Source: Planctomycetia bacterium
GTDB taxonomy: Bacteria; Planctomycetota; UBA8108; SXIK01
Reading direction: 5' to 3'
Assembly: GCA_005772855.1 (NCBI GenBank)
Contig: SXIK01000066.1
Span: 1,532-65,531 of the forward strand
DNA: 64,000 bases
The position numbers were made by a program, and so were the translations under genes. Numbering within the stretch: position 1 is the first letter of the stretch; the number at the start of each line of letters is the position of its first letter. The notes under the pieces were generated by a model. That model was not told the origin of the DNA, did not search any database, and saw nothing but the letters and a program-made list of their open reading frames with translations. Shown piece by piece: positions 6,140 through 41,560 of the stretch.

Positions 6140-7003
6140 TCACACTCCAATCCTCGAGATCGCCTTGCGCAGAGCTCTCGCGGTGCAGACGTCAGCGAGG
6201 TGCGAACGGTATTCGGCCGAAGCGGCGCCGTCCGACAAAATTTCCCTGCCGAGAGCAACACCTCGAATCATTTCAGCGAAAGCTCCAGGCAACGGCTCAC
6301 GACCCAGAAGCTGCTCCTCGATGACCGCCAGCCGAAAAGCTCTCTCCGCCACGCCAGTAACGCCGATTCTCGCACTGGCAATGCGCCCATCTTCCACCAA
6401 AATCTGCGCCGCAACGCCGGCCAGCGCGAAGCCGCTGGCGACATGGCGAACCCTGACGTAAGCCGCCGTCCGTGCCCAGCTGCGGGGCACATCGATCGCG
6501 AGTACGAGCTCATCGGGCTCGAGAGCCGTCTCGAAAGCACCCTGAATGAAGCCTTCGACCGGGACGGAACGTTCACCGCGTGGGCTCGCCACCACGACTT
6601 GCGCCTCGAGCGCAAGCAATGCGGCTGGATAGTCCGACGCAGGATCCGCCTGGCACACGGAACCGACAAGGGTCCCAAAATTTCGTACCTGAGCGTCCCC
6701 GACTTGTGACGCAACCTCCGCCAGGAGTGGAGATCGCCCTCTGGCAAGCTCCGAAATCTCGAGGTCGCGATGGGTAACAAGCGCTCCAATTCGTAGACCA
6801 CCATCCTCGAAGGGATCGATAGCAGAAAGGCCCGCCATGCGCCTCAGATCAAGGAGCACCTTCGGGCAGACCTCCCCCTGTTTCATTGCCGGAATAAGGC
6901 TGTGTCCGCCGGCAAGGACTTTCACGTCCTCTCGGTACTTGGCGAGCAGCTCGAGCGCCTCCTCAACCGACAGCGGCGACCTGTACTCGAAGGCCGGAAG
7001 CAT
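6140..7003 (-). CDS. Molybdenum hydroxylase FAD-binding (medium, CoxM/XdhB-like) subunit
   Basis: ORF 6140..7027. FAD-binding fold blocks FEYRSPLSVEEALELLA, VKVLAGGHSLIPAMK and the CO_deh_flav_C-like C-terminus. Start set to MLPAFEY, which overlaps the large-subunit stop in ATGA fashion. Confidence 0.85.
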   Translation of the reverse strand: MLPAFEYRSPLSVEEALELLAKYREDVKVLAGGHSLIPAMKQGEVCPKVLLDLRRMAGLSAIDPFEDGGLRIGALVTHRDLEISELARGRSPLLAEVASQVGDAQVRNFGTLVGSVCQADPASDYPAALLALEAQVVVASPRGERSVPVEGFIQGAFETALEPDELVLAIDVPRSWARTAAYVRVRHVASGFALAGVAAQILVEDGRIASARIGVTGVAERAFRLAVIEEQLLGREPLPGAFAEMIRGVALGREILSDGAASAEYRSHLADVCTARALRKAISRIGV

Positions 7004-9336
7004 CAGGCGCCTCCCGTCCCGCGGCACGAGCGAACGATGCGCCAGATCTTCTCGGGCGTCGCTGGAGGATCCACGTGAAGAACGCCCAGCGGACGCAGGG
7101 CATCGACAACCGCATTCATGACGGAGGCAAATGCGGCCATCGTGACCGTGTCACCGAGGCCCTTGGCCCCAAGCGGGTTGAGCGTGGTCGGTGTCGGCAG
7201 GCTTGAAATATCAAATCGAGGCACCCCCTGAGCCCTGGAGACGGGGCGTTCCATGAAAGTCCGCTGAAGGGGCTGGCCATCGTCACCCCGGGGAGACCCG
7301 GCCAGAAGCGCGAGCTCAATGCCGAGTGCAATTCCGCCGCGCACTTGCGCCTCGACCAGGGCCGGGTCAAGCTCCCGGCCAAGGTCTCGGACATTACAAC
7401 AACGCTCAACGGAGACTTCACCCGTTTCAGAATCGATGACGACCTGAGCCACGTGAATGGAAATCGGATGTGTCGAGCCTTGCGGCTCGAATACGAACGT
7501 TTCCTCAAGCAATGGCGAGGATCCTGGCTCGAGCTGACTGGCCCCATGGGCAAGAAGACAAAGATCTCGGTAGCTGACCCTGCGGCTGCCCGAGACAAAG
7601 TCGGCGCCATCTCGGTCGACGTACTCGACAGAAGTGCACAAAATGCCGGCCGCCACGCCACGAAGCCTTCGCTCAAGCGCGCGTGCGGCGCCCAGTACAG
7701 CAGAGCCGGTTGTCGCGATCGAACGCCCGCCGAATGAGCCGACTCCAGCTCGCATCGTCTGGGTGTCAGCACGCCCCACGCGTACAGCGTCCGCCTTGAC
7801 CCCCAAGGCATGGGCTGCGATCCGTGCCAATACAGTCTCGTGCCCCTCGCCACAGGCCAGTCCGCCCGTGAAGACCTCCGCCGAACCGTCCGCACTGACA
7901 TGAACCGTGGCGGCCTCCCAGGCCGGCCCGCCGGTCTCCCTGGAGGGCCCCTGCGCCCCGATCCCGACCAGGAGCGCAACTCCCAGGCCCACAAGCTCCC
8001 CCTTGCGACGCCGCGAGCTTGTCTCGTGCCTCAAAACGGCATACTGCGAACGCTCCACCGCCCTGTCAACGAGGCGGGAAAAGTCGCCGGAGTCGTAGCG
8101 AGCACGGGTCACGGTGGTCGCGGGAAGCTCCCTGAAGAGGTTCAGGCGCCGAACCTCCACGCAATCGAGCTCGAGGGCCGCTGCAACGAGGTCCATGGCT
8201 CGCTCGATGATGTAGCCCGCGCCACAGGCGCCCGCCCCGTGGCACGAAGTGGCGGGCGGGTTATTGGTGAAGACCGCCGTCACGGCCATCCGCGCTGCAG
8301 GGATCTGATAGGCGCCACACAGAAGCGTCCCCTCCGCAGAAGGATTGTGTCCAGGAACGATTGGAAGGTACGCGCCAACATCATCGATGCCGTCGTAGGA
8401 GATCGAGAGCAATCGGCCGTCTTCCCGCACCCCCACCTTGAGTTCGCCGGAAGTGGCGCGGGCCTGTGTCGAGAAGGCCAGGCTCTCTTCCCTCGTCTCA
8501 ATCCACTGAACCGGCCGCGGCGCGACGATACGAGCTATCGCGCAGACGACCAGTTCCTCCGGCGTGGCCCCGAGCTTCGAGCCAAACGCGCCGCCGACAT
8601 CGGGAGTGAAGACCCGCACGGCACTCTGGGGGAGCCGCATTGCGCCCGCAAGCTGTGCGCGCAGGAAGTGTGGAGACTCGGTCGAGCTCCAGACCTCAAG
8701 CCGCTTCTCACTCTCGAGCCACCGGGCAACAACACCTCGCGTCTCGAGAGGCGCTGGATGGTATCGAGGCCTGGCAATTCGGTGCGTGAGGACGCGATCG
8801 GCCTTCCGGAAGCCCTCTTCAGTGTCACCACCGGAGACGACGAACTGGTAGGCCACGTTGCCCCCGAGCGAGACATGCACGCAAGGAACGCGCTGAAGCA
8901 GCGCGGATTCTGGCTCCAGTATCCCTGGAAGCGGCTCGAGGTTCACCTCGAGCCCTTCCGCCGCTTTCCGAGCCTCGGCGACAGACTCGGCGACGACAGC
9001 CGCCAGCGGCTCCCCCGCAAAACGAGCCTCCCACTGCGCAAGCGCAGGGCGAGGAGGGCACCGAGTGTTCGGCGGAAGCGGACCGATCCATTCGAGAGGG
9101 TCACACACGAAGGCAAGCTCCGTGTGGGTAAAGACGCCCACGACGCCCGGCGACGCGGACGCTGCGGGAGTTTCGATCGAGCGGATCCGCGCGTGGGCTT
9201 CCAGGCTCCGGACCAGGTGCACGTGGAGAACCTCAGGGGGACGCAGATCCGCAATGAAAAGCCCACAGCCCGACACAAGACGCGGCCCTTCCTCAAGCCC
9301 GGTGCTCTCCCCTTCGATTCGTGCGTTGGTACTCAC
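7003..9336 (-). CDS. Molybdopterin-binding large subunit of a xanthine dehydrogenase/aldehyde oxidase/CoxL-family hydroxylase
   Basis: 777 aa. Ald_Xan_dh N-terminus (RIEGESTGLEEGPRLVSGCGLFIADLRPPEVLHV), GGAFGSK motif and a long molybdopterin-binding domain. I did not find a CODH form-I (AYXCSFR) or form-II (AYRGAGR) active-site loop, so the substrate is unassigned. Confidence 0.9.
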   Translation of the reverse strand: MSTNARIEGESTGLEEGPRLVSGCGLFIADLRPPEVLHVHLVRSLEAHARIRSIETPAASASPGVVGVFTHTELAFVCDPLEWIGPLPPNTRCPPRPALAQWEARFAGEPLAAVVAESVAEARKAAEGLEVNLEPLPGILEPESALLQRVPCVHVSLGGNVAYQFVVSGGDTEEGFRKADRVLTHRIARPRYHPAPLETRGVVARWLESEKRLEVWSSTESPHFLRAQLAGAMRLPQSAVRVFTPDVGGAFGSKLGATPEELVVCAIARIVAPRPVQWIETREESLAFSTQARATSGELKVGVREDGRLLSISYDGIDDVGAYLPIVPGHNPSAEGTLLCGAYQIPAARMAVTAVFTNNPPATSCHGAGACGAGYIIERAMDLVAAALELDCVEVRRLNLFRELPATTVTRARYDSGDFSRLVDRAVERSQYAVLRHETSSRRRKGELVGLGVALLVGIGAQGPSRETGGPAWEAATVHVSADGSAEVFTGGLACGEGHETVLARIAAHALGVKADAVRVGRADTQTMRAGVGSFGGRSIATTGSAVLGAARALERRLRGVAAGILCTSVEYVDRDGADFVSGSRRVSYRDLCLLAHGASQLEPGSSPLLEETFVFEPQGSTHPISIHVAQVVIDSETGEVSVERCCNVRDLGRELDPALVEAQVRGGIALGIELALLAGSPRGDDGQPLQRTFMERPVSRAQGVPRFDISSLPTPTTLNPLGAKGLGDTVTMAAFASVMNAVVDALRPLGVLHVDPPATPEKIWRIVRSCRGTGGA

Positions 9337-13682: not shown

Positions 13683-16600
13683 CTACTTCGTCTCCAGCGG
13701 AAGTTCAATGATGACGAGACTGCGCGCGAAGGAGCGAAAGATCTTCCCGTCTCGCTCGATGAATTCCGCTGGCAGAGTTGGTGGCTTCGTGGCACGCACA
13801 GCCAGTTCGGGCAGCTCCCGTTCAAACGCGAGATCCCTCGAGTGCACACTGATCCCGACGTCCAGCTGGTCGAGCGCGAGATAAACGGCCGGTCTCGAGG
13901 GGAGGTCGAGCCCTGGCTCGTCGAATACTCCCGAGGCCGAGTCGAAAGCGAGTGGAAGTGTGAAGGTCCCACCCTCGAGTTTCCCCTGCTCGAGGGCCGC
14001 CGAGCGCGTCATATTCTCCCCGGGAAGCCTCAGAATTGCGTCACCCGAGAGCTTCCGTTGCGCCGGGGAAAAGCCCTGCACGGTAATCGATAGCCGCCTC
14101 GCGAGGCTCGAGTAAGTTGCGCTCCCCGTGAGCGGCTGCTTGAGCACTGCTTCTCCGAGCAGGTGAATTTGACGCCGGCCCCAGGGTTGGGCGTGGATAT
14201 CAAGCCGCGCCACGCCGCCATCCACGGAGGAAATCGCAAGCGGCACCAGCTCCGCCGAAGCAAGACCGGGCGACCATCGGTTCCGGGAGCTCTCCATTTC
14301 GACCGAGAACGCGCTCAGGCCTCGCCCCTGGCAGTAAAGGGCATGCTCCTGCCGACCGGAGGACCGCAGATCGATGCGCGCAAAGGCGACGCCGTGTCGT
14401 GCCCCCGATCCAAAGAAGGCCACGCGGGTCAGGGTGGCGAAGCTCGGCCTCAGGTGAAGCGAGGCGTGAAGCACGGGGAGCAGCGCGACAAACCCTGACG
14501 GCAGCACGAGGATCCATAGCGGAATCCACTTGCGGCGCAGCCTCCTGCGAAGCGCGAAGAAGCCCAGGGGCCCGACCAAGAACACGTAGGCGACAAAGAA
14601 ACCCAGCACGGCAAAGAGGGAGGTCGAGTCGCGCAGCTCGAGCAGCTCGGGCGTGCTCCGCGATAGCCCCGAGAGATACTCGGATCGGGGCATGCCCTCG
14701 CTCCAGATGGAGTTCCAGAGCTCTTGATTCAGGGACAGGACCGTGGGGTCAAGGCTCAGGTGCGCAACCCGGCCGAAGGCCACCGGGCGGACAGAGAGGA
14801 TCGGCAACTTCGACGGCTCGGCCCGCGTGTCGATTTCTCCCCACTGGGTCGAATCCTCAAGCTCCTCAAGGCAAACGAGCGTGCCTGCAACGTCCACACG
14901 GGCGGATCTGCGTACGGCGAGAAGCGTCGACCAGCCTTCGATGGACTGCGCCGTCCCTGGGTCCATCGAGCCGAAAAAGACGACGGCACCTCCCCATCGC
15001 ACGAAATCGAGTAGCGCCTGACGCTGAGCGCGGGTCCACCGCGACAGGTCAGCCCACTGGACGAGCACCGTGTCCACCTGCTTGTAGGCGCGTGGATCCT
15101 CCGGAAGCCAGAAGGCTGGCGTTACCATCCAATTCTCTCCCTGGGTTCGAGCACGGGCGATCCTCTCCTTGTCCTCGCTCACCAACAGATAGTTGCGTGT
15201 CTCCTGCCGAGAGTTGCGCGACAGGAGCCCTGGCACAGGGATCGCGAGTTCGATCACGCCCTCGGGGGCGACCAGAGCGATCGTTCCACCTCCAGAGCGG
15301 ATCTGGCGGCCCCATTCGAAGCCCTCCGACCATCGCAGGGCTGTCCTGGTTCCGGCAGGCGCGACAAAGGGCCTGGGAGGCGGCGCCTCTCCACCACGAA
15401 GCTCGAGCCTCAACGTACCACGGATCTCCCTGCCGCTTGAATTCTCAAGGACCAGTGTGAAGAAGCTCGGGGATTCGACGCCATTCGTCTCGAAGAGTCG
15501 GCCGTTGAATCCGTACGTCAGATCCAACTTGAGTGGCAGCTCCGGCTGCTGCGCCCGGGCCGTGTTCGTGCAAGGGCCAAGGAGTGCGATGAACAGGAGC
15601 ACCACCACCGCCGGGCCCGCGGCCGGCCCGGACGGAGGGCTCTCCGGGCGCTTCGGCAAGTTACGGCGAGTCCAGATTGTCCAATCCGCAAGGATGATGG
15701 CGCCGAGCGCGAGCAGGAAAATAGCGGCAATCCCTCCGTGCCACGTCAGATACCGGCCAAAGGCCTCGTCGGGGTCCAATCGAGGGGCCATGGAGTCTTG
15801 CACCAGAAGGGTCAGGATCGGCGTCACGAAGATGAATGGGTACAGGCCGCGGGGAAGCCAGCCCTCGCCAAGCCCCATGAGAAGTAACGGCGGCCCGATC
15901 AGGACCGCGCCCGCGGAGAGGAGTATCACAAACCGCAAGGCCGCCTGCGTCTCGACGAAACGGGCGACGACCCTCCCGAGAAGGTACGTGTTGACGACGA
16001 AGATGGTGATGGCCCCAAGAAGCTCGTGCCAGGCGCGCTCGAACCGTTCGAGCGCGGCCGGTTGAGGCGCCGCCATCGAGGGTCCGACGCTCTTCAGGGC
16101 GCACTGGAGAACCCCCCAGTGCTGGGCAAGGAAAACCACAATGAGAAATAGCAACGTGTTTGCCTGGAACACCCCTCGTGAAACCTTGAAACGTCCGATC
16201 CGTTCTGTCCAGGTCAGTTTTTCACGAGCGTCACCGAGTGCGAGTAACCCCAGGAAAAGCACCAGGCTGGTACCCAGAATGGAGAGCACAATATGGGGAT
16301 TCGCATCCAGCCTGAGGCCCCCTGCCTGAATCCTGGGCGCGCCGTCAAAACAAAGACCCAGGATAGCGGCCCAGAGAAAGATGATCCATCCGATGAGCAA
16401 GACCCGGCGCAGTGGGTAGTCAAACCCGTCGAGCCAGCGGGGCCGATTCTCGTAAAAGAATGCGATTTCAACGCGCCTCGTCTGGGTGAATCGCGCCTTA
16501 CGAAAGAAGCGTCGCTTGCCGTCGCCGGCAAGCACGATGTTGCCGAAGTTGTTGAGCCCGGGAAGGAACCGGTGCGCCGGCCCCAGGAGTACGAGCCCGA

Positions 16601-17363
16601 CGAAGGGCGCCGAAACGATTCCCCATAACAGGTAGGGATAGATTTCCGTTGGTATGCGGTAGAGGTAGAGGACTGCGTCGCTGTCCCACAATCTGGAGAA
16701 GAGCGTGTTCTGGTAGAGCTCGCTGACGAAACACCGCACCGGCGTGATCCAGCCGATGACATTGGGAACGGGCGCGAACCCCAGGAGCATTCCGAGGCCA
16801 AAGGTGAAAATCGTCGCCGGGACTCCAATCCATTCGCGCTCGAGCAGGAACATCCCCAGGGAGACGGCTATGATGACGTTCGAGTAGACCGCCAGCACTG
16901 CATAGCCCCCCCAGAGGCTCCAGAACGGCACTCCTCCCAGCATGTAGGAATAGAGCTGAAATGGCAGGCTCACGAGCAGGAGCCCCAGCGCAAAGACCCA
17001 GGCAAGCAGCCAATTTCCGAGCTGGATTCGCAGCGGTGAAACGCCGGTGACGACCACCTGATCAAACACCTTGTCCATTCGAGGCCCGTCGATCGCGCCT
17101 GCCAGCCGGATCGGCAAGAGCACAACCAGCAGGCCAAGGAGCACCAGGAAATTGACCGAGGAGAGGTGAGCTCCGGCGTACCCCTCCGAGACCGAGGCGT
17201 CGTCGGACAAAAGAACAGCCGAAAACGTGATCACGTCCGCGAGAAGGAGAGCGCCCGTGGCGAACACAAAGATCAGCCCCAGTCGGGGCCCGGTGAGCTG
17301 AGTGGAGATCTGACGACCGATGAGCGGGTTCTCCAGAAAGAAACGCTTGAGCTGCGAGATCAT
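13683..17363 (-). CDS. 1226-aa fusion protein: N-terminal multi-span ABC-2-type permease domain plus C-terminal GldG-like ABC-auxiliary extracytoplasmic domain
   Basis: Start overlaps the ABC ATPase stop (ATGA). At least 10 hydrophobic helices in the first roughly 600 aa. The C-terminal about 600 aa are soluble-looking and similar in character to GldG/ABC_transp_aux proteins (VLVQWADLSRWTRAQRQALLDFVRWGGAVVFFGSMDPG). Confidence 0.7.
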   Translation of the reverse strand: MISQLKRFFLENPLIGRQISTQLTGPRLGLIFVFATGALLLADVITFSAVLLSDDASVSEGYAGAHLSSVNFLVLLGLLVVLLPIRLAGAIDGPRMDKVFDQVVVTGVSPLRIQLGNWLLAWVFALGLLLVSLPFQLYSYMLGGVPFWSLWGGYAVLAVYSNVIIAVSLGMFLLEREWIGVPATIFTFGLGMLLGFAPVPNVIGWITPVRCFVSELYQNTLFSRLWDSDAVLYLYRIPTEIYPYLLWGIVSAPFVGLVLLGPAHRFLPGLNNFGNIVLAGDGKRRFFRKARFTQTRRVEIAFFYENRPRWLDGFDYPLRRVLLIGWIIFLWAAILGLCFDGAPRIQAGGLRLDANPHIVLSILGTSLVLFLGLLALGDAREKLTWTERIGRFKVSRGVFQANTLLFLIVVFLAQHWGVLQCALKSVGPSMAAPQPAALERFERAWHELLGAITIFVVNTYLLGRVVARFVETQAALRFVILLSAGAVLIGPPLLLMGLGEGWLPRGLYPFIFVTPILTLLVQDSMAPRLDPDEAFGRYLTWHGGIAAIFLLALGAIILADWTIWTRRNLPKRPESPPSGPAAGPAVVVLLFIALLGPCTNTARAQQPELPLKLDLTYGFNGRLFETNGVESPSFFTLVLENSSGREIRGTLRLELRGGEAPPPRPFVAPAGTRTALRWSEGFEWGRQIRSGGGTIALVAPEGVIELAIPVPGLLSRNSRQETRNYLLVSEDKERIARARTQGENWMVTPAFWLPEDPRAYKQVDTVLVQWADLSRWTRAQRQALLDFVRWGGAVVFFGSMDPGTAQSIEGWSTLLAVRRSARVDVAGTLVCLEELEDSTQWGEIDTRAEPSKLPILSVRPVAFGRVAHLSLDPTVLSLNQELWNSIWSEGMPRSEYLSGLSRSTPELLELRDSTSLFAVLGFFVAYVFLVGPLGFFALRRRLRRKWIPLWILVLPSGFVALLPVLHASLHLRPSFATLTRVAFFGSGARHGVAFARIDLRSSGRQEHALYCQGRGLSAFSVEMESSRNRWSPGLASAELVPLAISSVDGGVARLDIHAQPWGRRQIHLLGEAVLKQPLTGSATYSSLARRLSITVQGFSPAQRKLSGDAILRLPGENMTRSAALEQGKLEGGTFTLPLAFDSASGVFDEPGLDLPSRPAVYLALDQLDVGISVHSRDLAFERELPELAVRATKPPTLPAEFIERDGKIFRSFARSLVIIELPLETK

Positions 17364-18307
17364 GAGACGATCCCCTTCGTGCGTTCGAGGAAAATAGCCT
17401 CGAGGTCCACTTTCTCTTGCGAGAAGCTCACGACCTCAATATCCGCCGAGATCAGGGCCCTGAGCACCTGGCTCGAATGCCGTCCGGCCATCCGCCCCTC
17501 GATCCGGGGGCCGCCAGACGTGGTCAGCGTGGCCACCTCCACTCCCTCCACAGCCTTGACGGCCTCGAGCGTCCTTTGCGCATCCTCCTCCGCAACCTCC
17601 ACGAAGAACCCGAAACGCTGTGCCCTGAGCTCCTTTTTCACGACGCTCAGGGAACCGCTCCACACTACCCTGCCCAGCTCGACTATGGCAGCGTGGGTGC
17701 ATATCTCCTCCAGATCAGCAAGGATGTGGCTCGAGATGATGACCGTCTTGCCCATGCTGCCGAGCTCCTTGAGAAGCGAGCGGATCTCGATACGGGCCCG
17801 GGGATCAAGCCCGCTTGCAGGCTCGTCAAGAACCAGCACCTGCGGATCGTGAAGCAAGGTCTTCGCCAGGGCGAGGCGCTGGCACATGCCAGTCGAGAGA
17901 GTGTTCGCGGTCTCGTGGCGCACGCCGATCAAGTCCGTGAGCTCGAGCACTGCATTGACCCGACTCGTCAGCTCCCGACCTCCAAGGTCGTGGGCGCGGC
18001 CAAAATACTCAAGGTATTCCTCGCAGCTCAACGTACGAAATTGGCCAAATTGATCGGCCATGTAGCCCAGGATCCGCCGCGCGGCCCGCACCTCCCGGGA
18101 AAGGTCCTCACCGCCGATGGCAATCTTGCCGGTGTCCGGCTTGATGAGCGTACTGATCATCTTCAGGGTGGTTGTCTTGCCAGCGCCGTTGGGCCCAATG
18201 AGCCCAAAAATGCTGCCACGAGGGACCTCGAGATCCATGTCATCAACTACTATTTTGCCGTCGTAAGACTTTCGAACCTTTGCGAGTTGAATCATGGCCG
18301 AGTACAT
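17360..18307 (-). CDS. ABC transporter ATP-binding protein (ABC-2 / GldA-like subfamily)
   Basis: Walker A GPNGAGKTT, Q-loop, signature LSTGMCQRLALA, Walker B VLVLDEPASGLD and H-loop SSHIL. Confidence 0.9.
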   Translation of the reverse strand: MYSAMIQLAKVRKSYDGKIVVDDMDLEVPRGSIFGLIGPNGAGKTTTLKMISTLIKPDTGKIAIGGEDLSREVRAARRILGYMADQFGQFRTLSCEEYLEYFGRAHDLGGRELTSRVNAVLELTDLIGVRHETANTLSTGMCQRLALAKTLLHDPQVLVLDEPASGLDPRARIEIRSLLKELGSMGKTVIISSHILADLEEICTHAAIVELGRVVWSGSLSVVKKELRAQRFGFFVEVAEEDAQRTLEAVKAVEGVEVATLTTSGGPRIEGRMAGRHSSQVLRALISADIEVVSFSQEKVDLEAIFLERTKGIVS

Positions 18308-18433: not shown

Positions 18434-19465
18434 ATGGAAAAAGTCAACGTCGGCGACATCGAGCTGGTCCTCACTCAACCTGTGCAACAGGACCTCAATT
18501 GGATCGGGCAGGAGGATCTCGTCGAGCAAATTCTCGCCTCGTGGCTAGTGGCCGGTGAAAAAGACCTGCCGCTTTGCCCCAGGCTCATTGGCAAGCCAGG
18601 CGTGGGCAAGACAACCCTGGCATGCTTCGCCGCCCGCTCGGCCGGCCTCGAGACCTATATTCACCAGTGCACGGTGGACACCCGCCCCGAGGATCTGCTC
18701 GTGACCCCGGTCCTCTCGAGGAGCGGTAAGATCTCTTATCACGCGAGCCCCCTCGTCTCGGCAATGATCCGGGGCGGGGCCGTCATCCTGGACGAAGCGA
18801 ATCGCATGAGCGAAAAGTCCTGGGCCTCGCTCGCTCCCCTTCTCGACCACCGCCGGTACGTCGAGAGCATTGTCGCAGGCATCCGCATACCAGCGCACCC
18901 CGCTTTCCGTGCCTGCATCACCATGAACGAGGACGCCTCCACCTACGAGATTCCCGACTACATGCTCTCACGCATCCAGCCGTCTGTCAGCGTGGAGTTT
19001 CCGGAAAAGGAGGAGGAACTCCGCATCTTAAAGTACCACCTACCGTTCGCGGAGGAGGCAATCCTCGAGATGACGGTGAGCTTCCTCGAGGAGGCGCACA
19101 AGTATGGCCTGGGCCACTCCACAAGGGACGGAATCAACATCGCCCGGTATTCATTCAAGATGGCAGAGCGAGAACGCCGGCGCGGCGTTCCCGAGCACGA
19201 GATGACAAGCCTCAAGGACCGCTTCACCCGGGCCGTCCAGAAAATCCTTGGCGAGGATGCGCTCGCCTTCAAGAGTCAGTCCGTCGAGGAGCCTCCGCAA
19301 CAGCTCATGGACTTGCGGGATTTCTTTACTGCGCTCGACGACATGAATGTCAACGAGTCGAAGCCACCGAAGAAGCCCGAGAAACCCAAGCGAAAAGGAC
19401 GGGGACGGAAGCCCCGGCCGAAGCCGGAGGACGGCGCCGGCGACTCCGGGGACGAGCCCTTCTGA
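18434..19465 (+). CDS. MoxR-like AAA+ ATPase (AAA_5/CbbQ-NorQ-GvpN-like) with a Lys/Arg/Pro-rich C-terminal tail
   Basis: Walker A LIGKPGVGKTTLA; Walker B AVILDEANRM; sensor-1 ITMNEDAS. Tail KPPKKPEKPKRKGRGRKPRPKPEDGAGDSGDEPF. It is divergent from the ABC operon and stops 2 nt before the next gene. Confidence 0.85.
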   Translation: MEKVNVGDIELVLTQPVQQDLNWIGQEDLVEQILASWLVAGEKDLPLCPRLIGKPGVGKTTLACFAARSAGLETYIHQCTVDTRPEDLLVTPVLSRSGKISYHASPLVSAMIRGGAVILDEANRMSEKSWASLAPLLDHRRYVESIVAGIRIPAHPAFRACITMNEDASTYEIPDYMLSRIQPSVSVEFPEKEEELRILKYHLPFAEEAILEMTVSFLEEAHKYGLGHSTRDGINIARYSFKMAERERRRGVPEHEMTSLKDRFTRAVQKILGEDALAFKSQSVEEPPQQLMDLRDFFTALDDMNVNESKPPKKPEKPKRKGRGRKPRPKPEDGAGDSGDEPF

Positions 19466-19467
19466 TC

Positions 19468-21405
19468 ATGCTCGAGAGCAAGGACGGAATCCTCTGGCTA
19501 CGGGACATCGCGTTTGTCCCCTCGATCCATGGCCGCGTGGCCTTCGCCCGGGAGACCCGGCGCGTCTTTCTCGGCGGGCGCTTTCCCACGGTGGCGGTGG
19601 AGCTGCCCGAGTCGCTCGGACCACGGACGATAGAGGGCATCGAGCGGCTTCCCAAGATCACCACCGTTTCTTACGAGGAGTCGAATGGCACACGCTGCTT
19701 CTTCCCCATCGACCCGTGCGACTCCATCATTGAGGCCTTGCGATTGGGCCTGGGCGAAAGCTGCGCGCTGGAGCTCATCGACTGCGACGTGGAAGACTTT
19801 CAACGCACTGAGCTTGTCCTGCCCGATTCCTACGCCGTGAACTCCCTCGGCCTTGCCCGGTTCTACGAGGCTGTGCGGCCGACGCTGCAACTCCCAGCCC
19901 CCGGCTCGCAGGATGATCAAAGGGAGCGCCACATGGCTGGCCGTCTGCTCGACATCCTGAATGGTGGCCCGCGCGGGCTGCCCGCCCTCTGCGTCATTGG
20001 ACTGGGGCACATGGAAGGCGTCGCCCGACACCTCGAGGCTGCGCTGAGTGAGGGGAGGAGCGTCCTCGGAGAGATCTCCACAGTCCCCCCGCCCTTTGAT
20101 GTTGAGATCCACGAGGTCAGCGACGAGGAGTCCCTCTACCACATACTGGGAGAGCTCCCCTACACCACTTATCTCTACGAGCTCCAGCGCTCCTCCATCA
20201 CGCTAGACCCATTCGAGGCAGTCGACAAGATCAAGGAGCTCCTGCTTGAGGCCCGCGACCGTTACCACACGAAACACTCGCAGGAGTACGAGAAGATCTC
20301 CCTCGGATCGTTCCAGAACCTGCTTCAGCTCGTCCGAAACCACTGCCTCCTCGGGAAGCGCCTGACGCCAAGCCTCTACGAGATGGTAATCGCAGCCAAG
20401 GGCATCGCGGGAAGCGAATTTGCGATTGACGTGATCGAGACCGCAAAGCGATATCCACCCGCGCACCCGAGCGAGGAGCCGAACACCGCGCATGAGCCCG
20501 GCGAAGCCTATACCGACACCTCCGGTGAGAGCGGAAGCCTGGGCGAGGAAGCGCTGTTCGAAGATTCCGTCGACCCCCCCGAGACAGGGAGCAACTCAGG
20601 TGTCGAGGCGATTCAAGTCAAGAAGCGCTACGTCGACGAGGCGAAGATCTGGAAGCGTGTCAGGCTTGAGCCTCCCCCACCCCCCAGGGATGTGAAGCGC
20701 TGGCGATCCACCTGGAACCCCAACGGCAACTGCTCGTGGACACCCGAAGATGTGCTCATCGAGAACTTCGCCGGTCACATCCGGAGCCGCGCCCTCCTCG
20801 AAAGCGGCGTCACGCAGGAGCACCTCGAGGAGTTCAAGACCTCCCTCAAGGACGGTATCCACGTCCGCGAGACCATTCGAAACCTGCACCTGGGAAAGAT
20901 CATCGTCAAGGAAACACCGCCCCCAAGGGGGCAGGTCGGCGCCGTCGTCATCATTTACGAGCCGCCAGACCCCACGCGCTTCCCGTGGCACATCACCTGG
21001 CTCCCGGAGTTCGAATGGGAGAGCGTGCTCGCCTTCTACGCCACGGCCTATTCCGACAAGCTCATCGGGCCCGGGATCGCCCGCTCGCTTTACGGCGGGC
21101 AGCTGTTCGTCCGTCCGGACCATCTCATTGAGGACGTCTGGTCCGACACGACGCTCAATGAAGCTCGCGACGATGCCGAAAGGCTTGTTCTTGCAGGGGT
21201 ACTGCACTCAAGCGATGCGTACGTGGCCTACGTTGCGGCAACTGCGCCAACACCACGCATGAAGGAATACGCTCACCGTTGGGGCAAGAAGATCATCTAC
21301 CTTCCTCTCTCGGGCTTCAGCCGTAGCACCCTACAGAAGCTGCGCCGCTTCCACGTCTTGAACGGCAAGCCAGTGCGAGGCTGGGCCAATTTGTATATCC
21401 GTTGA
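19468..21405 (+). CDS. 645-aa partner protein of the MoxR-like ATPase; function unknown, no recognisable VWA/MIDAS
   Basis: Begins 3 nt after the AAA+ gene stop, so they are likely translationally coupled. I found no DxSxS MIDAS motif. The N-terminus (ILWLRDIAFVPSIHGRVAFARETRRVF) loosely resembles the N-terminus of DUF5682-type proteins that accompany AAA_5 ATPases, but I cannot confirm that by eye. Acidic mid-region, conserved aromatic C-terminus. Confidence 0.7.
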   Translation: MLESKDGILWLRDIAFVPSIHGRVAFARETRRVFLGGRFPTVAVELPESLGPRTIEGIERLPKITTVSYEESNGTRCFFPIDPCDSIIEALRLGLGESCALELIDCDVEDFQRTELVLPDSYAVNSLGLARFYEAVRPTLQLPAPGSQDDQRERHMAGRLLDILNGGPRGLPALCVIGLGHMEGVARHLEAALSEGRSVLGEISTVPPPFDVEIHEVSDEESLYHILGELPYTTYLYELQRSSITLDPFEAVDKIKELLLEARDRYHTKHSQEYEKISLGSFQNLLQLVRNHCLLGKRLTPSLYEMVIAAKGIAGSEFAIDVIETAKRYPPAHPSEEPNTAHEPGEAYTDTSGESGSLGEEALFEDSVDPPETGSNSGVEAIQVKKRYVDEAKIWKRVRLEPPPPPRDVKRWRSTWNPNGNCSWTPEDVLIENFAGHIRSRALLESGVTQEHLEEFKTSLKDGIHVRETIRNLHLGKIIVKETPPPRGQVGAVVIIYEPPDPTRFPWHITWLPEFEWESVLAFYATAYSDKLIGPGIARSLYGGQLFVRPDHLIEDVWSDTTLNEARDDAERLVLAGVLHSSDAYVAYVAATAPTPRMKEYAHRWGKKIIYLPLSGFSRSTLQKLRRFHVLNGKPVRGWANLYIR

Positions 21406-21447: not shown

Positions 21448-21768
21448 TCAGTTCCGGCTCGGCCCCTGCTTCTTGCGGCGACCCGGGGTACGGCTGCGTG
21501 GATCATGATCCGGCCCCACCGGCATTCCGGTCGTCTCACTGGCCACCGCCGAATCGCCATTGGAGGAGGTCTCGAGGCTTGCCCGTGGGGAGCCGAGATT
21601 CTGCTCGAGCCACGCCTCGATGATCGACTTGCGAAAGCGCCACTCCTTCCCAATCTTCGCTCCAGGAAGCTTGCCCTGCTGAGCCCAACGATAAATTGTC
21701 TGCCGCTTCAGCTTCAAGAAGGTGGCGAGCTCGTCGATTGTCAAAACCTCGTCATCGAAAACGGACAT
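21448..21768 (-). CDS. Small helix-turn-helix DNA-binding protein (excisionase-family HTH_17-like)
   Basis: LTIDELATFLKLKRQTIYRWAQQGKLPGAKIGKEWRFRKSIIEAWLE matches the excisionase/MerR-like HTH_17 pattern; basic disordered tail. Confidence 0.75.
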   Translation of the reverse strand: MSVFDDEVLTIDELATFLKLKRQTIYRWAQQGKLPGAKIGKEWRFRKSIIEAWLEQNLGSPRASLETSSNGDSAVASETTGMPVGPDHDPRSRTPGRRKKQGPSRN

Positions 21769-22384: not shown

Positions 22385-23527
22385 TCAGACGGCCTGACGC
22401 TGCAAAATGAGCGCATCAAGCTCGAGCTTCAACCGGTCCAGCACCTCGTTGTAGCCGAACGTTCCGATCTCGACGTCCTTCTTCTTGAAGTTCACGTGGC
22501 GCGAGCCGCACCAGAGGCCCAGGTCGGCTTGGTCGGTCTCGCCCGGGCCGTTCACCCTGCAACCCATGACTGCGATCGTGATGTCATGCTCCTTGGCGTA
22601 GTGGGTCAGTTCCTTCACCTGAACCGCGAGCTCGACAAAGGCCTCGTTCTCGACTCGAGAGCAACTCGGGCAGGAGATAATGTTAAGGCCTCCGGAAAGC
22701 TGAGGGACCGACCGGAACCGACCGTTGCTCATGTCATCGAGAATTTCGAGCCCAGCCACCACCTCCTCATACTTCCTCGGATTGGGAAGCGTGAGCGAGA
22801 CACGAAGCGTGTCACCAATTCCTCGGGTGAGCAGTTGCTCGAAAGCAATGCGCGTCTTGATCACGCCGTCGGGCGGCAGCCCCGCCTCCGTCACGCCAAG
22901 GTGCAAGGGCACCTCCGGCCGCTCCTTGGCGAAGCGTGCGTTCGCCTCAATCACGTTGAGTGGATTTGAGTCCTTGAGCGAGACGACGAACCGCTTGAAG
23001 CCGATCGAGTCGAGGATCTCGGCATGGTCAAGAGCGCACTGCACCATCGCCTGAATGTCGTCGTCCTCATACTTCTCCTTGTAGGCAGGGTCGACGGAGC
23101 CGCAGTTGACACCCACGCGAAGCGCGCAGCCATGCTCGGCAGCCGCAGCCGCGATGAACTTCACCTTGTCCGCCACCGGCTTCGTTTTCTCCACGTGGTA
23201 AAGGTGCCCAGGGTTGTACCTGACCTTGTCGACGTGAGGGGCGACCCGGGTGACCAGGCGGTAGTTTTCCTGGAGGTCCACGACAAGGTTCGCCGGCGTT
23301 CGCCGGCGAATCTCCGCCAGAGCCTCGACGTCCTTGATGTTGTCGCAGGCGACTCGGACCAGGCCGGCGCCAGCCTTTCGGATCGACTCGGCCTGCTCCA
23401 CGGTCGCCTCGATATCCTGAGTATGCGTGGCGGTCATGCTCTGAACGAGGATCGGATGGCCACCACCGATGAAGTGGTTCCCCACTTTCACCTCGCGCGT
23501 GGGGTTGCGCGTGAAGCTCAGGCTCAT
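22385..23527 (-). CDS. ispG: 4-hydroxy-3-methylbut-2-en-1-yl diphosphate synthase (IspG/GcpE)
   Basis: ORF 22385..23611, trimmed to [32 protein letters not shown].... Conserved GcpE core and the C-terminal [4Fe-4S] cysteines (CPSCSR...GCRVNGPGE). Confidence 0.92.
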
Positions 23528-23591
23528 TACTGTGGATTCCTTGTCAAAAAGTGAAGTCGAGGATTGTAAGACTCGCCACGACCGGGGGTCA

Positions 23592-25949
23592 ATGGAGATC
23601 AACGCGTGCAACCGAGTCTTTTTTGCCCTCGCAGCCTTGATGGCCCTCGTCAGCCGGATCGATGCTCAGGCACCACCCCCCTCTGCGGGGCGTCCTGTGC
23701 GCACGATCACTCTGGAGGGACGGGAGCTCTATCCCGAGGAGACCATCCTGGAGAGAGCCGGCATTCGTCCCGGCGACACCTGGACGGAGGCCTCCGAGGC
23801 CCGGGTCCTGGAGCGGCTTGCCGCATGGCCTTTCCTCGCCTCGGTGGGCTTGCCCCGTGTACTTGAAGCGCCCGATGGCGGCGTCGATCTATTCCTTCCC
23901 GTCCGTGAGCTACGGACCACGGGTCGCATCACCTTTCACGGCAACGATTCGCTCCTCTCGGCGACTCTGAAAGAGGCGTCAGGGCTGGCGAAGGGCGCCC
24001 CACTATCGGAAGACTCAGTCCGGGGGGCCGAGGAAGCAATCATCGATCGCTACCAGGACGACGGGTTTCTGCTGGCCTCCGTCGACGGCGTGGCCACGCC
24101 CGGCCCCGGCGGCCGGGCCGACCTGGACTTCACCGTCCACGAGGGCCGCAGGGTCTACTTGAGCGCAGTTCGCCTGGAGGGGGCCTCGCAGGTCCCGGCC
24201 AACGAGGTCCTGAGTCTGATCGAGACTCAGCCGCGCCGTCTCTTCGGACTCATCACGCGCGGCTACTACAGACCCGGCAGGATCGAGGCCGACCTGGATC
24301 GTCTACGCCGAGTCTATTGGTCGAAAGGGTACCTCGAGGTCGAATTGGGCTTCGGAGGAATCGAGCTCAACGAGAAACGCAATGAGGCGACCTTGACAAT
24401 CCAGGTGCGCGAGGGCCCTCGCTACGAGATCCGGAACGTCCGGATCGAAGGCCAACGGCTCTTTTCACGGCAGCACCTTGAGCTGGACGGATCGCTTCCT
24501 TCGGGGGGCTTCTACACAGGCAAGCTGGTTGAGGACACCTACCGAAGAATTCTCCGCTGGTACCAGGAGCACGCCGACATCGCCCCCGTGGTCCGCGTGC
24601 GCCACGAATATCCAAGCCCACTCAGGGTGGACCTGGTCTACGAGATCCGCGAGGAGGAGCACTACTTCACCGGCCTCGTACAAATCACGGGAAACGATCG
24701 ATCGCTCGACCGGGTCTTCCGCCGCGACGTGACGCTCGTGCCCGGCAAGCCTCTCACGGAGAGCGAAATCGAACGGACCAGGGACCGACTCAAGGCCAAC
24801 GGCATTCTGGAAAGTTTCGAAATCCGCCAGAGGCGCACCGACGACCCTCACGTGCGCGACGTTCAGATCGCCCTTACCGAGAAGCGGCAGACGGGAGGGT
24901 TCCGGGCTGGCGGGGGCGCCTCGGCTGGCGCGGGAGAAGTAGCCTACTTCAGCATCCACGAGTCCAATCTCGACATCTTTCGACTACCCGGCGGCGGGAC
25001 GGCGTGGAACCAGGCCTTTCGGGGAGGCGGGCAAACCCTCGACATCGAAGTCATCCCGGGAACACGGGAGTCCCAGTACCAGTTCCGGTTCGTTGAGCCT
25101 TATCTCTTCCGAAGCGACCTGGCACTCGGGCTCGGAGGGCTGACCAGCCTTTACGACCGGAGGAGCTACGACGAGTCCCACCTACGCGGCGCAGCGACAA
25201 TTCAGAAATTCTTCGACCGAGACCACCGGCTTTCGCTGTCGGTTGGCTACATCGCCGACGCTGTCGCGATCAACAACGTCGACTCGGACGCGCCTCAGGA
25301 CGTCCTCGACGCCGGAGGCCACACGTTTCTCGGGTATCCAAGGGTCGAGCTCAAGTACAACAATGTGGTCAGCAGCTACTTCTCGGGTCCGCGAGGCTTC
25401 ACGGCCACTCTTCGCGCCGACTTCGCCGACTCGGCAACAGGCTCGAGAGTGAATTTCGCTCGGACCACACTCACCGCCGACTGGGCCGTGGGCCTCTTCG
25501 ACGATCGAAGCGACTACCAACACGTGCTTCGTGTGAGTGTCGACGGGGGTTGGGTCGAGGGGCGTGGCGAGGCTCTGCCGCTCTTTGAGCGGTTTTACCT
25601 GGGCGGTCCCCGGTCGTTTCCCGGCTTCAGTTACCGGAGCGTTGGCCCTCGCGAGGGCCGAACGACCCTGGGCGGAGAGGGCATGGTCCACGGAAGCATC
25701 GAGTACTCGCTGCCGATGGTACGCCCCGAAGTACGCCCCTTTGCATTCTTCGGGTGGGGCGACCTCGAGCCCAGTTTCTCCCGGCTCTCCGACGAACGGT
25801 TCCGCACTGCGGCCGGCGGAGGAATTCATTTCCGCCTGAAGCTCGGTGAGCAGCACCTCCCCGCCACGCTTTACTGGGTGAAGGCCCTCTCGAGCGAAAC
25901 CGACGACCGGGAGCAGCTCTTTTCCTTCACGGTGGGCATTAACTTTTGA
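23592..25949 (+). CDS. Omp85-family outer-membrane protein assembly factor (BamA-like) with POTRA repeats and a C-terminal beta-barrel
   Basis: ORF 23469..25949, trimmed to [27 protein letters not shown] (signal peptide; ATG at 23592). Repeated POTRA-like modules ([22 protein letters not shown]..., [21 protein letters not shown]...), a Bac_surface_Ag-type barrel and a C-terminal ...FTVGINF. Divergent from ispG. Confidence 0.85.
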
Positions 25950-37231: not shown

Positions 37232-40200
37232 TTATCGACTCAGCTCAATCATTTGCGCCACCGGGACCGAGGCGAACCGACAACCCTCCGCCATGGTTTC
37301 GATGTCCTTCGCTCCGGTGGTCTTGCGATAAGCCTGAGCTTGAGTGGGCTGCAACGTGCGCAGGATCACGTTGAGTCCAGAACTCGCGTGCTTGAATCTG
37401 ACTTCGGCCTCAAGGAAGCGCTTGTTGGCAAGAAATAGTTTGCCCAGCTGGTACCGTGTCTGCCAGAGGATCTCCGGGTAAGGAGCCTGGGCTGCCATGT
37501 TTTCCGCGAAAAGCAAGTTGCGCTCGGCACGGCTAGGTTGGCCACCTGGGATAACGGATTCCAGAGCCGCAGTGGCAAATAAGTAGCGGCACCGCAGGTA
37601 GGAGAGCTGAAGCTTTTCGGCCAAGTGTAGGCCCTCCTCGAAGTTCAGATAGGCTTGCTCATGTTGGCTCCGCTTGAGACACAGAAGCCCGTGCTCCAGA
37701 TACAGGTGCGCCAAGTCCCTCGCGCTGCCATGAGTCGTCAGCATTTCCGTGGCCTCGGTGAATACTTTCTCGGCATTGTCGAGCTTACCCTCGTCGGCCA
37801 GAACCATTCCCTCAATGAGACGAGCCCAGCCACCCAGCGACGGCAAGTCATGATTCCTTGACGCCTCGAATAGAGACACAATGGCCCTGCGCGCCTCGCC
37901 CGTGCGTCCAAGTCGACACAGGAGGTACCCTTGCTGAGTGGTCAGGCGCGCCACTGCGACGTGGCCCCTGAGGTCTCTGGCAGCCAGGACTCCCTCCGCC
38001 ACATGGTTGAGAGCCATGCCGAGATCACCCCTGTAGAGGGCCAGGTCACTCAGAAGCCCAAATATACCCAGCATGCCGGCATTGGAGCCGCGACCGGCAC
38101 CGCTCATCCTCTCCGCTTCCTCAAGATGTCGCTTCGCGTTTTGCAGCTCACCCTTGTCGCTGGCAACTCCGGCCATTGTGAGAAGGGTCTGCAGAGTCAG
38201 GCGACGCTTCTCGAGTGGCCCCATACGTCGCAACGCTTCCTCAATGACCTCGTGGCAAGCATCATATTCGCCCAGCAATCGGCACACTTCGGCAAGCGTA
38301 CAAAGAGCCGCCACGGAGTGGCACAAGTTGCCGGTTTTCGCGTAGAGGGACACTGCCTCCTCGAGGCTGGCTCGGGCCTCAACCTGGTTTCCTATCAGGT
38401 GGTACAATATGCCAATCTCTCGATGGCAGTCGGCCTGCCCGTCCAACGCACTGGTCTTGCGCCGCAGAAGGAGGCAAAGCTGAAACTGACGCAAAGCCTT
38501 GTGGAAATGTCTCTGATAGAGGTGGTACTTTCCACGACAGTACAGGCTCCAGGCCAACAGCTTTGAATCGTGCTGAGCCTCAATTAACCGCAGGGCCGTC
38601 TGGCAGTGACCGATCGCATTCTCCGAGCTGTTCAAGACAGAGTGATTCTCTGCTATCAGCATGTGGAGCTGCGACAAGAAGTATGGGTCTTTGAGCTCAC
38701 AGTTTGATTTCAAGAGTCGAGTACAGCATCGGAGGCTCTCAACAAGGTTGCCCTTGTAATAATGGAGTTCCGCCAGGGCCATCATGATGGCCGCCAACTC
38801 TGCCGTGGACTCACTGCCCTTGTCGGGTCGAACTGAGCGGTTCAGAAGAGCAGTGGCCTGGTCGAATCGTCCAAGCCGAGCGTAAGCCCGCGCCGCTTCG
38901 AGATAGACGCTGACCTTCTCCTGTCGCTTCAAGTCAGGCGGAAGTCGAGTGAGGTCAAGCAGATCAAGCGCTGCACTGTAGTCGCCGACCTGAAATTTCA
39001 GGGAAGCAATCGCACGCTCAATCTGAAAACGCAGGCTGCGCTCATCCGGTCCAACAAGGCCAAGCACTCGTTCGTAAGTCTCCATCGCCTGGATGGGAGC
39101 AAACTCTCTCGCCAGGTCCTTTGCCGCCTCGATTCCATACCGAATTCCCTTCTCCTTGTTCCCGGCTCGAATGTAGTGGTGAGCCAGGATCCTGGAGGAA
39201 TCCTTCCCAAGCGAGGCGACTCGCGACTCGCAAAGGACACCCGCTTTTTCGTGATACGCGGAGCGTTGCTCCTCCGGAATGCTGTTGTAAAGGATGGCTC
39301 GGGCGCTCGAGTGCACAAAGGAATAAGCACCCGCCCGATTCTCCGCGCCGCCACCCTGCAAAATTCTTTCAAGCGTCAAGACTTCCAAGCACTTCACGGC
39401 ATTCCGTTCGGGAATTCCTGACAGATGGACAGCGACGTCAAGCTCACACACGTCGCCCATGCAGGCGAAGGCTCTTCCTATCTGAAGCACTTCCTCTGGC
39501 AGTTTCGTGATGCGATACTTGAGCTCACGGCGGACCTTACCGGGAAGATCCTCGCTTTCGTAGTCGCTCCCCAGCGCCCAGCCCTGTGCCACCCGTGCAA
39601 TCTTGCCCCGGTGAAGAAGGTGTCGGAGGATGTCAATGACGATCTCAGTGTTGCCATCGCTTTCCTCGAGCACTCTCTGAACGAACGCCTCGGGACATTC
39701 GAGCCCGACGAAGGCGGTGCGCACAAATTCCGCAACCTTCTGCTCATCAAATCGCCGCAACTCAATCTCGAGTACGTTCTCTCGAAAAAACGTCGTGTCG
39801 CAAAGACGCAGGAAATCGCTGCTTCCCAGCTCGGCTCGCTCAAGGACGGTGCCCGTCATGAGAAGCTTTGATCGGGCCACGGATCCCCCCAGCGAGGAAC
39901 GTATCAGAGACTCGAGCAGATGCAAGATTGGCGTGCCGGCCAGGTGCAGGTCGTGAAAGCAAACCACGATCGGAGACTCCTGGCTGGCTTTCAGAAGCGC
40001 GTGAACTGCCTCCTTGAGCACAGGCTCGTACCCCTGGACGGGATTGTCCTTCAAGTCCTGAAGCCTCTGCACAAACCCAAACGCATTTTCGACGAAGGTC
40101 AAGGATCGCACTCTTCCGCGCAACTCGTCAATCGCACCAAGGTCGGCCACAATGCGTTCGAAGCCCTGCCCCGCCCTGGAATGGGCACCACATTCAATCT

Positions 40201-41419: not shown

Positions 41420-41560
41420 GGAATCCTGCCCGTAGAATACGATGCGAAAGCCGGACGGGTAAGGCTGCCCTGGAGAAGAGGAACTTCCAAGGCGCCCTGG
41501 CGGCCAGGAAGCGGACAGGCCCGACAAGTGAGGCCATCCTCAAATGAAAGGCTCGGGCTA

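Follow-up and report, generated by a model that had tools for sequence, protein, structure and literature searches.

A MoxR-type ATPase would be expected to work with a partner carrying a VWA domain, and the locus described here raises the question of what takes that place when the adjoining gene encodes no such protein. MoxR ATPases serve as chaperones in maturation, and a VWA cofactor is generally found along with them (PMC3893208). The locus lies in a stretch of 64,000 nucleotides (nt) from a Planctomycetia bacterium (contig SXIK01000066.1, positions 1,532 to 65,531), referred to below as the window and used for all coordinates. It comprises two open reading frames (ORFs), both identified with their translations: a MoxR-like AAA+ ATPase gene of 343 amino acids (aa) (18434..19465, + strand), also recognised by its AAA_5 and AAA_3 scores, and the gene for a 645-aa partner protein belonging to an unnamed family (19468..21405, +). 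The partner holds the position that is occupied in other MoxR systems by the cofactor with the VWA domain and its metal ion-dependent adhesion site (MIDAS). The reading favoured, at a probability of roughly 60%, is that the pair represents a distinct MoxR subfamily, organised as a conserved, translationally coupled two-gene operon, in which the VWA cofactor has been replaced by a TIKI-fold protein.

The window ATPase scored 57.4 bits against AAA_5 and 29.7 bits against AAA_3, above both cut-offs (22 and 27 bits respectively), and its motifs are intact, in agreement with the MoxR-like assignment proposed in an earlier note on this DNA. Motif invariance was judged in an alignment of the window protein with four orthologs and YehL. 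Residues G53, P55, G56 and K59 were invariant in the Walker A motif GKPGVGKT (aa 53–60, 18590..18613, +), as was E121 in the Walker B region AVILDE (aa 116–121, 18779..18796, +; VILDE at 117–121, with D120-E121); sensor-1 N165 and R180 were invariant too. Judged by Walker A, Walker B and sensor 1, the ATPase is catalytically intact. The nearest solved sequences were the AAA modules of midasin (E 6e-17), while similarity to CbbQ and NorQ (the CGN subfamily) and to 2r44 was weak and roughly equal (E ~1e-6); the GvpN model gave 22.6 bits against a cut-off of 266.8. These similarities, roughly equal for CGN and MRP members of solved structure, do not place the protein in any one of the seven named MoxR subfamilies (MRP, APE0892, RavA, CGN, APE2220, PA2707 and YehL). 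BLASTP against YehL gave nothing significant, the best local match (E 0.18) falling at Walker A.

The ATPase stop codon, TGA, ends at 19465 and the ATG of the partner is at 19468, which leaves a spacer of 2 nt ('TC'); the close coupling noticed earlier stands, with the distance corrected from the 3 nt then given. The conservation of this arrangement was assessed in a scan of one genome per GTDB species, using two peptide patterns from a 14-sequence alignment. The partner family was found in at least 589 species genomes, mostly of Planctomycetota, Nitrospirota, Nitrospinota and Latescibacterota. Locus comparisons rest on the best 80 of the at least 589 confirmed species loci, with flanks of ~6 kb, and pairing with the ATPase was tested in these by tblastn. 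The 80 loci come from the four phyla named and from Gemmatimonadota and Omnitrophota; their hosts include Singulisphaera acidiphila DSM 18658, which is among the cultured hosts, Planctomicrobium sp. SH661 and Candidatus Nitrospira defluvii. In 66 of the 80 loci the partner gene is directly preceded, on its own strand, by an ATPase ortholog of 49–65% identity; the two are immediately adjacent in 63 of these and ~1.3 kb apart in the remaining three (L022, L023, L084). Two other loci have almost no upstream sequence. The median projected gap from ATPase stop to partner start is 12 nt, and the start codon is within 30 nt of the stop in 54 of 68 pairs. The earlier note had allowed that the two genes might not be co-conserved; this is refuted, since they are paired far more often than chance would give.

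All ORFs of the 80 loci were clustered to find any third gene. Wide sharing was limited to the partner (80/80), the ATPase (67/80) and the shadow ORFs of the two, and the module therefore consists of two genes. No third conserved gene was present within 6 kb, the next family reaching 17 of the 80 loci and the remainder being lineage-specific (Nitrospinota) synteny. The flanks are made up of housekeeping genes unrelated to each other, for example ligA, dapB, lpxD, bamA and murJ. Beyond the species scan, a word-index search gave 67 partner clusters, all lacking Pfam domains and called 'hypothetical protein' where named, and an exhaustive profile search gave 2005 representatives (50% identity) at E ≤ 1e-3 and 664 at E ≤ 1e-30. 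Fusions of the ATPase and partner genes were seen in none of 215 family representatives.

The family at 17 of 80 loci encodes a lipoprotein-like coiled-coil protein carrying a LysM domain at its C-terminus, and its gene is divergent from the ATPase and ~1–1.5 kb upstream of it. It was found in Nitrospirota, Nitrospinota, Latescibacterota and Planctomycetota (L021, L024, L042, L049, L053, L054, L057, L064, L066, L067, L078, L079, L084, L085, L087, L089 and L090; also L004, 3501–4163). The association is weak but crosses phyla and might hint at a link to the cell envelope, although coiled-coil composition might inflate the clustering.

The absence of a VWA domain from the partner, claimed previously from the sequence alone, held in Pfam, motif and predicted-fold checks and extends to a cryptic form of the fold. 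In the Pfam scan neither the window partner nor any of 36 homologs matched a VWA family at E ≤ 1, the MIDAS string D-x-[ST]-x-[ST] occurs nowhere in its 645 residues, and its predicted fold is not the VWA (integrin I-like) fold. Nor is a VWA gene a member of the module, and the neighbours that were scanned are other than VWA. A single VWA protein was found in the window, the 1762-aa VWA_2 protein that lies 27 kb from the pair and in a different cluster.

The fold of the partner was predicted with AlphaFold2 (AF2) on a 37-sequence alignment. The model is confident, with a mean predicted local distance difference test (pLDDT) of 84.5 and a predicted template modelling score (pTM) of 0.71, and shows two folded parts, residues 1–330 and 381–645, with a disordered acidic linker between them. 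The N-terminal domain (aa ~1–216, 19468..20115, +) has the parallel beta-sheet core fold of the TIKI/TraB-PrgY-GumN/EreA-ChaN superfamily. The relatives listed for the partner were ChaN (8.3), HopBA1 (8.0), two EreA-like 'succinoglycan biosynthesis' proteins (7.7 and 7.2), EreC (7.0) and RRSP (5.6), and Foldseek of the model against the PDB gave nothing at E ≤ 1e-3. Active enzymes of the TIKI superfamily need a conserved His-Glu pair, and RRSP has a 2His/2Glu motif (PMC6254334). Two His and a Glu are found in the window protein as H21, E45 and H181, accompanied by R152. Counted over 214 partner-family representatives, as percentages of aligned sequences, H21 is retained in 88%, E45 in 82%, R152 in 86% and H181 in 76%. 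By these residues most members, including the window protein, look catalytically competent and a minority does not.

Sequence searches gave a fainter picture of the same domain. The window protein does not match PF01963 (TraB_PrgY_gumN), the best family member reaching 14.6 bits, below the cut-off of 26.8; it has no Pfam, PADLOC or PHROG match, and in NCBIfam a faint TraB match only (E 0.29). Faint, collinear matches to TraB_PrgY_gumN and to DUF5682 were present in individual family members, and the family profile matched PDB sequences by a single chance hit (E 0.92). The domain is accordingly placed in the TIKI/TraB/EreA-ChaN superfamily at the level of fold and superfamily only. Similarity to the characterised branches (Tiki metalloprotease, RRSP endopeptidase, erythromycin esterases, ChaN and HopBA1) lies below Pfam thresholds, and the partner differs from the superfamily descriptions found in being apparently cytoplasmic, in the fusion of the domain to a helical region and to a C-terminal domain that is large and unrelated, and in its coupling to an AAA+ ATPase. 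No hydrophobic segment suggestive of a membrane span is present in either the ATPase or the partner, and both proteins are apparently cytoplasmic.

The N-terminal domain is followed by the helical middle region (aa ~217–330, 20116..20457, +), with helices at 220–326 in the AF2 model and conserved residues E229, P231, E238, R241, R290 and P301. Partner variants of 700–806 aa (P0085, P0092, P0097, P0127, P0136, P0138, P0142, P0197 and others) have an insert of 100–170 residues at profile position ~243, between the TIKI-like domain and the helical region. The disordered linker (aa ~331–380, 20458..20607, +; pLDDT <50 for residues 333–380) contains 13 Asp/Glu and no Lys/Arg over aa 331–382; its length is variable and many clades do without it. 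The C-terminal domain (aa 381–645, 20608..21402, +) is the most conserved part of the partner, almost invariant across phyla, and matches no solved structure. It is marked by the motifs CSWPPED..IE, KDGI..RET, AEH..ESTLAFYAT, VGPGIGR..YGG and FHVLNG..VR, and S423, E427, D428, E432, D462, G463, E514, S519, H629 and R637 are essentially invariant. A hot-dog fold is possible for its first half.

The ATPase carries a candidate for the contact between the two proteins. The aromatic C-terminal motif LMDLRDFFTALDD (aa 291–303, 19304..19342, +) is the window equivalent of a GDFFF motif that reads P-x-G-L-G-D-F-F-F-x-x-D-D-P-L-H-P-D in most phyla (Nitrospirota, Nitrospinota, Latescibacterota and many Planctomycetota) and L-x-D-L-R-D/E-F/L-F in the window clade, the window protein having LRDFF. 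A hydrophobic-FF motif was present in 68 of 71 species-level ATPase orthologs, and FF occurred within the last 90 residues in 100 of the 120 closest ATPase cluster representatives, the rest of those shown having LF, FL or YF variants. The FF motif is the hallmark of this ATPase subfamily. Docking motifs of other AAA+ proteins include HbYX of the proteasomal ATPases and the IGF/LGF loops of ClpX and ClpA. The FF motif resembles these as a short, conserved, hydrophobic or aromatic peptide, here in a flexible C-terminal extension of the ATPase, and differs from them in position, sequence and ATPase clade; by analogy it may be a docking element.

The pair shares with RavA-ViaA, CbbQ-CbbO, NorQ-NorD, MoxR proper and CoxD a small AAA_5/AAA_3 ATPase with intact motifs, encoded in an operon with one dedicated partner. 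A chaperone or maturation role is likely, as taken from the characterised MoxR systems (PMC3893208). The differences are that those systems use a VWA cofactor, whereas neither sequence, motif nor fold shows a VWA/MIDAS in this partner, and that this ATPase subfamily has a C-terminal GDFFF motif of its own. In the mechanism proposed, the ATPase ring would bind the partner, plausibly via the aromatic C-terminal tail, and ATP would be used to remodel a housekeeping client recognised by the partner. The partner could possibly cleave or hydrolyse that client at its TIKI-type site. The pair would then be a MoxR chaperone with an enzyme-like adaptor in place of a MIDAS adaptor.

Several observations weigh against the replacement of the VWA cofactor by this partner or against the mechanism built on it. 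Eleven loci, all from Planctomycetota, have no ATPase within 6 kb; at one metagenomic locus sigma-70, kinase and PD40 genes separate the partner from an ATPase ~5 kb upstream; and the Brachyspira homologs (L005, L006) have no ATPase in the available flank. The docking role of the FF motif rests on analogy. One or more of the His/Glu/Arg/His residues is missing in 12–24% of the family, in which the C-terminal domain is retained, and hydrolysis is therefore not a universal function. The gene neighbourhood gives no pointer to a client. Finally, a VWA protein may act in trans, the window itself encoding the VWA_2 protein 27 kb away. The fullest version of the proposal, a hitherto unrecognised and widely conserved housekeeping machine in which the MoxR-type ring docks by GDFFF onto a TIKI-fold hydrolase with a new-fold substrate-binding or catalytic domain, for ATP-dependent processing of a cytoplasmic client, is offered tentatively and is rather improbable.

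A more specific version of the favoured reading is a machine resembling the AAA+ proteases, in which substrates would be unfolded by the MoxR ring or presented by it to a TIKI-fold peptidase site, with docking by the aromatic motif much as proteasomal and Clp ATPases dock by HbYX or IGF motifs. True endopeptidases, Tiki and RRSP, do occur in the TIKI superfamily (PMC6254334), but so do esterases and non-enzymes such as ChaN and PMT. In favour of the machine are the His/Glu/Arg/His set, which the window protein and most members have in full, the aromatic motif in 68 of 71 ATPases and the tight coupling of the genes; the members that lack catalytic-type residues yet keep the C-terminal domain (12–24%) speak against it. 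To our knowledge no MoxR-family ATPase is known to feed a peptidase, and oligomerisation of the partner into a chamber is without support. A protease-like machine is on balance doubtful.

The earlier note had suggested a DUF5682-type pair, and this proved right for one domain. A DUF5682 profile was built from 22 DUF5682 proteins including E. coli YehM (330.8 bits against PF18934) and compared with the partner family by hhalign, which gave 95.4% probability (E 1.7e-8) over partner-family columns 18–197 against DUF5682 columns 5–227; the family profile against YehM alone gave 88%. H21, E45, R152 and H181 of the window protein align with the invariant H11, E35, R175/E176 and H202 of DUF5682. The E. 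coli cluster yehL-yehM-yehP-yehQ is also similar in layout, with an AAA_5 ATPase gene and, immediately after it, the gene of a large protein that has this TIKI/TraB-like domain in its N-terminal ~200 residues, with His, Glu, Arg-Glu and His positions as in the partner.

It is nevertheless unlikely that the pair is a divergent member of the DUF5682 (YehL-YehM-type) system. The homologous N-terminal domains, the common gene order and faint DUF5682 matches in 3 of 37 family members favour such a relationship, but only ~180 of 645 residues align. Nothing is collinear past the first ~200 residues of the ~700-residue DUF5682 model, which leaves the other ~450 residues of the partner unaligned, and DUF5682 has no counterpart of the conserved C-terminal domain that is the signature of the partner family. 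The window protein does not match PF18934 (cut-off 26 bits), the best family member, P0062, reaching 17.2 bits. The window ATPase has no significant BLASTP similarity to YehL, and the module lacks any third gene and equivalents of the VWA gene yehP and the SWIM gene yehQ. The suggestion thus stands for the N-terminal ~180 residues and fails for the other ~450, for the PF18934 score, for likeness to YehL and for yehP and yehQ.

Another possibility would assign the partner to the TraB/PrgY proteins of conjugation or pheromone type, or to a mobile or anti-phage defence element. The name is borne by the full-length homologs of the spirochaete Brachyspira aalborgi (P0054/P0458, WP_147531462.1; ~30% identity), which NCBI labels 'conjugal transfer protein TraB', and the N-terminal fold is TraB-like; an HTH_17 gene lies next door. 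TraB and PrgY act at the membrane, and neither a signal peptide nor a transmembrane segment is evident in the partner. The NCBI name is probably misleading and derived from the weakly TraB-like N-terminal domain. The partner gene is chromosomal, in one copy per fetched locus and among housekeeping genes in many phyla; it has no PADLOC or PHROG match, the HTH_17 gene is not conserved with the pair, and an ATPase 49–65% identical across phyla is atypical of conflict systems. A transfer or defence function is highly improbable.

It is similarly hard to credit that the two genes are functionally independent and adjacent through the shared ancestry of closely related genomes. This would account for the partner genes without an adjacent ATPase at the 11 Planctomycetota loci and in Brachyspira; it is contradicted by the distribution of the pair. 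The genes are neighbours, with order and strand kept, in 66 of 80 species genomes; these come from six phyla and have otherwise unrelated flanks, and the spacers are very short or the genes overlap. Least probable of all is an ordinary MoxR-VWA pair whose partner contains a divergent or cryptic VWA/MIDAS; this reading has only the general pairing rule in its favour (PMC3893208) and is ruled out as far as Pfam, motif and predicted fold allow.

The earlier note had stressed a polybasic extension of the ATPase. The stretch KPPKKPEKPKRKGRGRKPRPKPEDG is indeed present at aa 310–334, just after the aromatic motif, as a Lys/Arg/Pro tail, KPPKKPEKPKRKGRGRKPRPKP (aa 310–331, 19361..19426, +), followed by an acidic end. 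However, Lys/Arg/Pro-rich C-termini such as PEKPKRKGRGRKPRPK, PEKPPRKPRKKPRPPR and KPRKPGRKKKTKD are almost confined to the ~25 closest of 120 ATPase clusters, roughly those of at least 64% identity (P0337, P0341, P0342, P0348, P0350–52, P0354 and others). They are absent from the orthologs of other lineages, and among 71 species orthologs the typical tail is ~35–40 residues long and net acidic, the window tail having the highest Lys+Arg content (14). In some Planctomycetota (L060, L073, L091, L026) GDFFF is followed by a long poly-Asp/Glu run with a short basic cluster at the end (DDDRDDSGKGRRR), and the charged appendage therefore differs in sign and length between clades. By this comparison the polybasic tail is a clade-specific, low-complexity appendage and not a defining part of the system. 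Electrostatic attraction between the basic tail of the ATPase and the acidic linker of the partner was considered and rejected, there being no positive co-variation in 71 species pairs (Spearman rho −0.25 for tail Lys+Arg against linker Asp+Glu, and −0.22 for the lengths).

The pair is flanked, as had been described, by ABC exporter genes and a gene with an excisionase-type helix–turn–helix (HTH_17). Upstream and divergent are an ABC_tran gene (17360–18307, −) and a gene for a 1226-aa protein without Pfam matches; downstream and convergent is the HTH_17 gene (21448–21768, −), then IspG and BamA. The order of the 1226-aa protein and ABC ATPase (13683–18307, −), the MoxR pair, HTH_17 and BamA (23469–25949, +) is syntenic only in a related 9.2-Mb Planctomycetota genome (L001), where the 1226-aa protein has a counterpart of 1219 aa, likewise without a Pfam domain, and not in other phyla. 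The ABC exporter and the HTH_17 gene are outside the conserved module.

Further from the pair, 6140–9336 (−) encodes subunits of a molybdoenzyme of the xanthine-dehydrogenase/CO-dehydrogenase type (FAD_binding_5 with CO_deh_flav_C, and MoCoBD_1/2). CoxD-type MoxR ATPases mature such enzymes (PMC3893208); no link is proposed here, because these genes lie 9 kb off on the opposite strand and are not co-conserved with the pair. A 909-aa Tubulin_2 (PF13809) protein (45481–48210, −) adjoins the 1762-aa protein with N-terminal VWA_2 (48297–53585, −), and large ORFs without Pfam matches flank them (43381–45477, 53595–55475 and 55624–57198, −). These genes look like a separate cluster, unrelated to the MoxR pair by position or conservation. 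The region 37232–41527 (−) encodes a 1431-aa protein in which a Ser/Thr kinase domain is combined with TPR repeats and with a weak match of NTPase type to AAA_16, below the threshold.

In the literature no paper was found on DUF5682 or on a MoxR/TIKI-fold pairing, and no description of such a pair was found in publications on YehL/YehM or on MoxR with TraB/PrgY, with SWIM/DUF4132 or with TIKI/ChaN. A MoxR chaperone with a dedicated cofactor is a known kind of system; what is new here is the partner, an uncharacterised and widely distributed family. All MoxR ATPases studied to date act with a VWA/MIDAS cofactor; the subfamily is a clean and widespread counter-example and provides, with its candidate docking motif, a testable case for the coupling of a MoxR ring to non-VWA cofactors. 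The near-invariant C-terminal domain, which has neither a Pfam model nor a solved structural neighbour, is a new domain in a new protein family, both to be defined, and the pair opens a first way to the function of the N-terminal domain that the partner has in common with the uncharacterised enterobacterial DUF5682/YehM proteins. If the housekeeping-machine proposal were true, the complex would be a new class of AAA+ effector, replacing the MIDAS-adaptor logic on which all studied MoxR systems are built. The 49–65% identity of the ATPase across phyla, together with the housekeeping context of the genes, suggests that the pair has a core cellular function in nitrite oxidisers and in planctomycetes.

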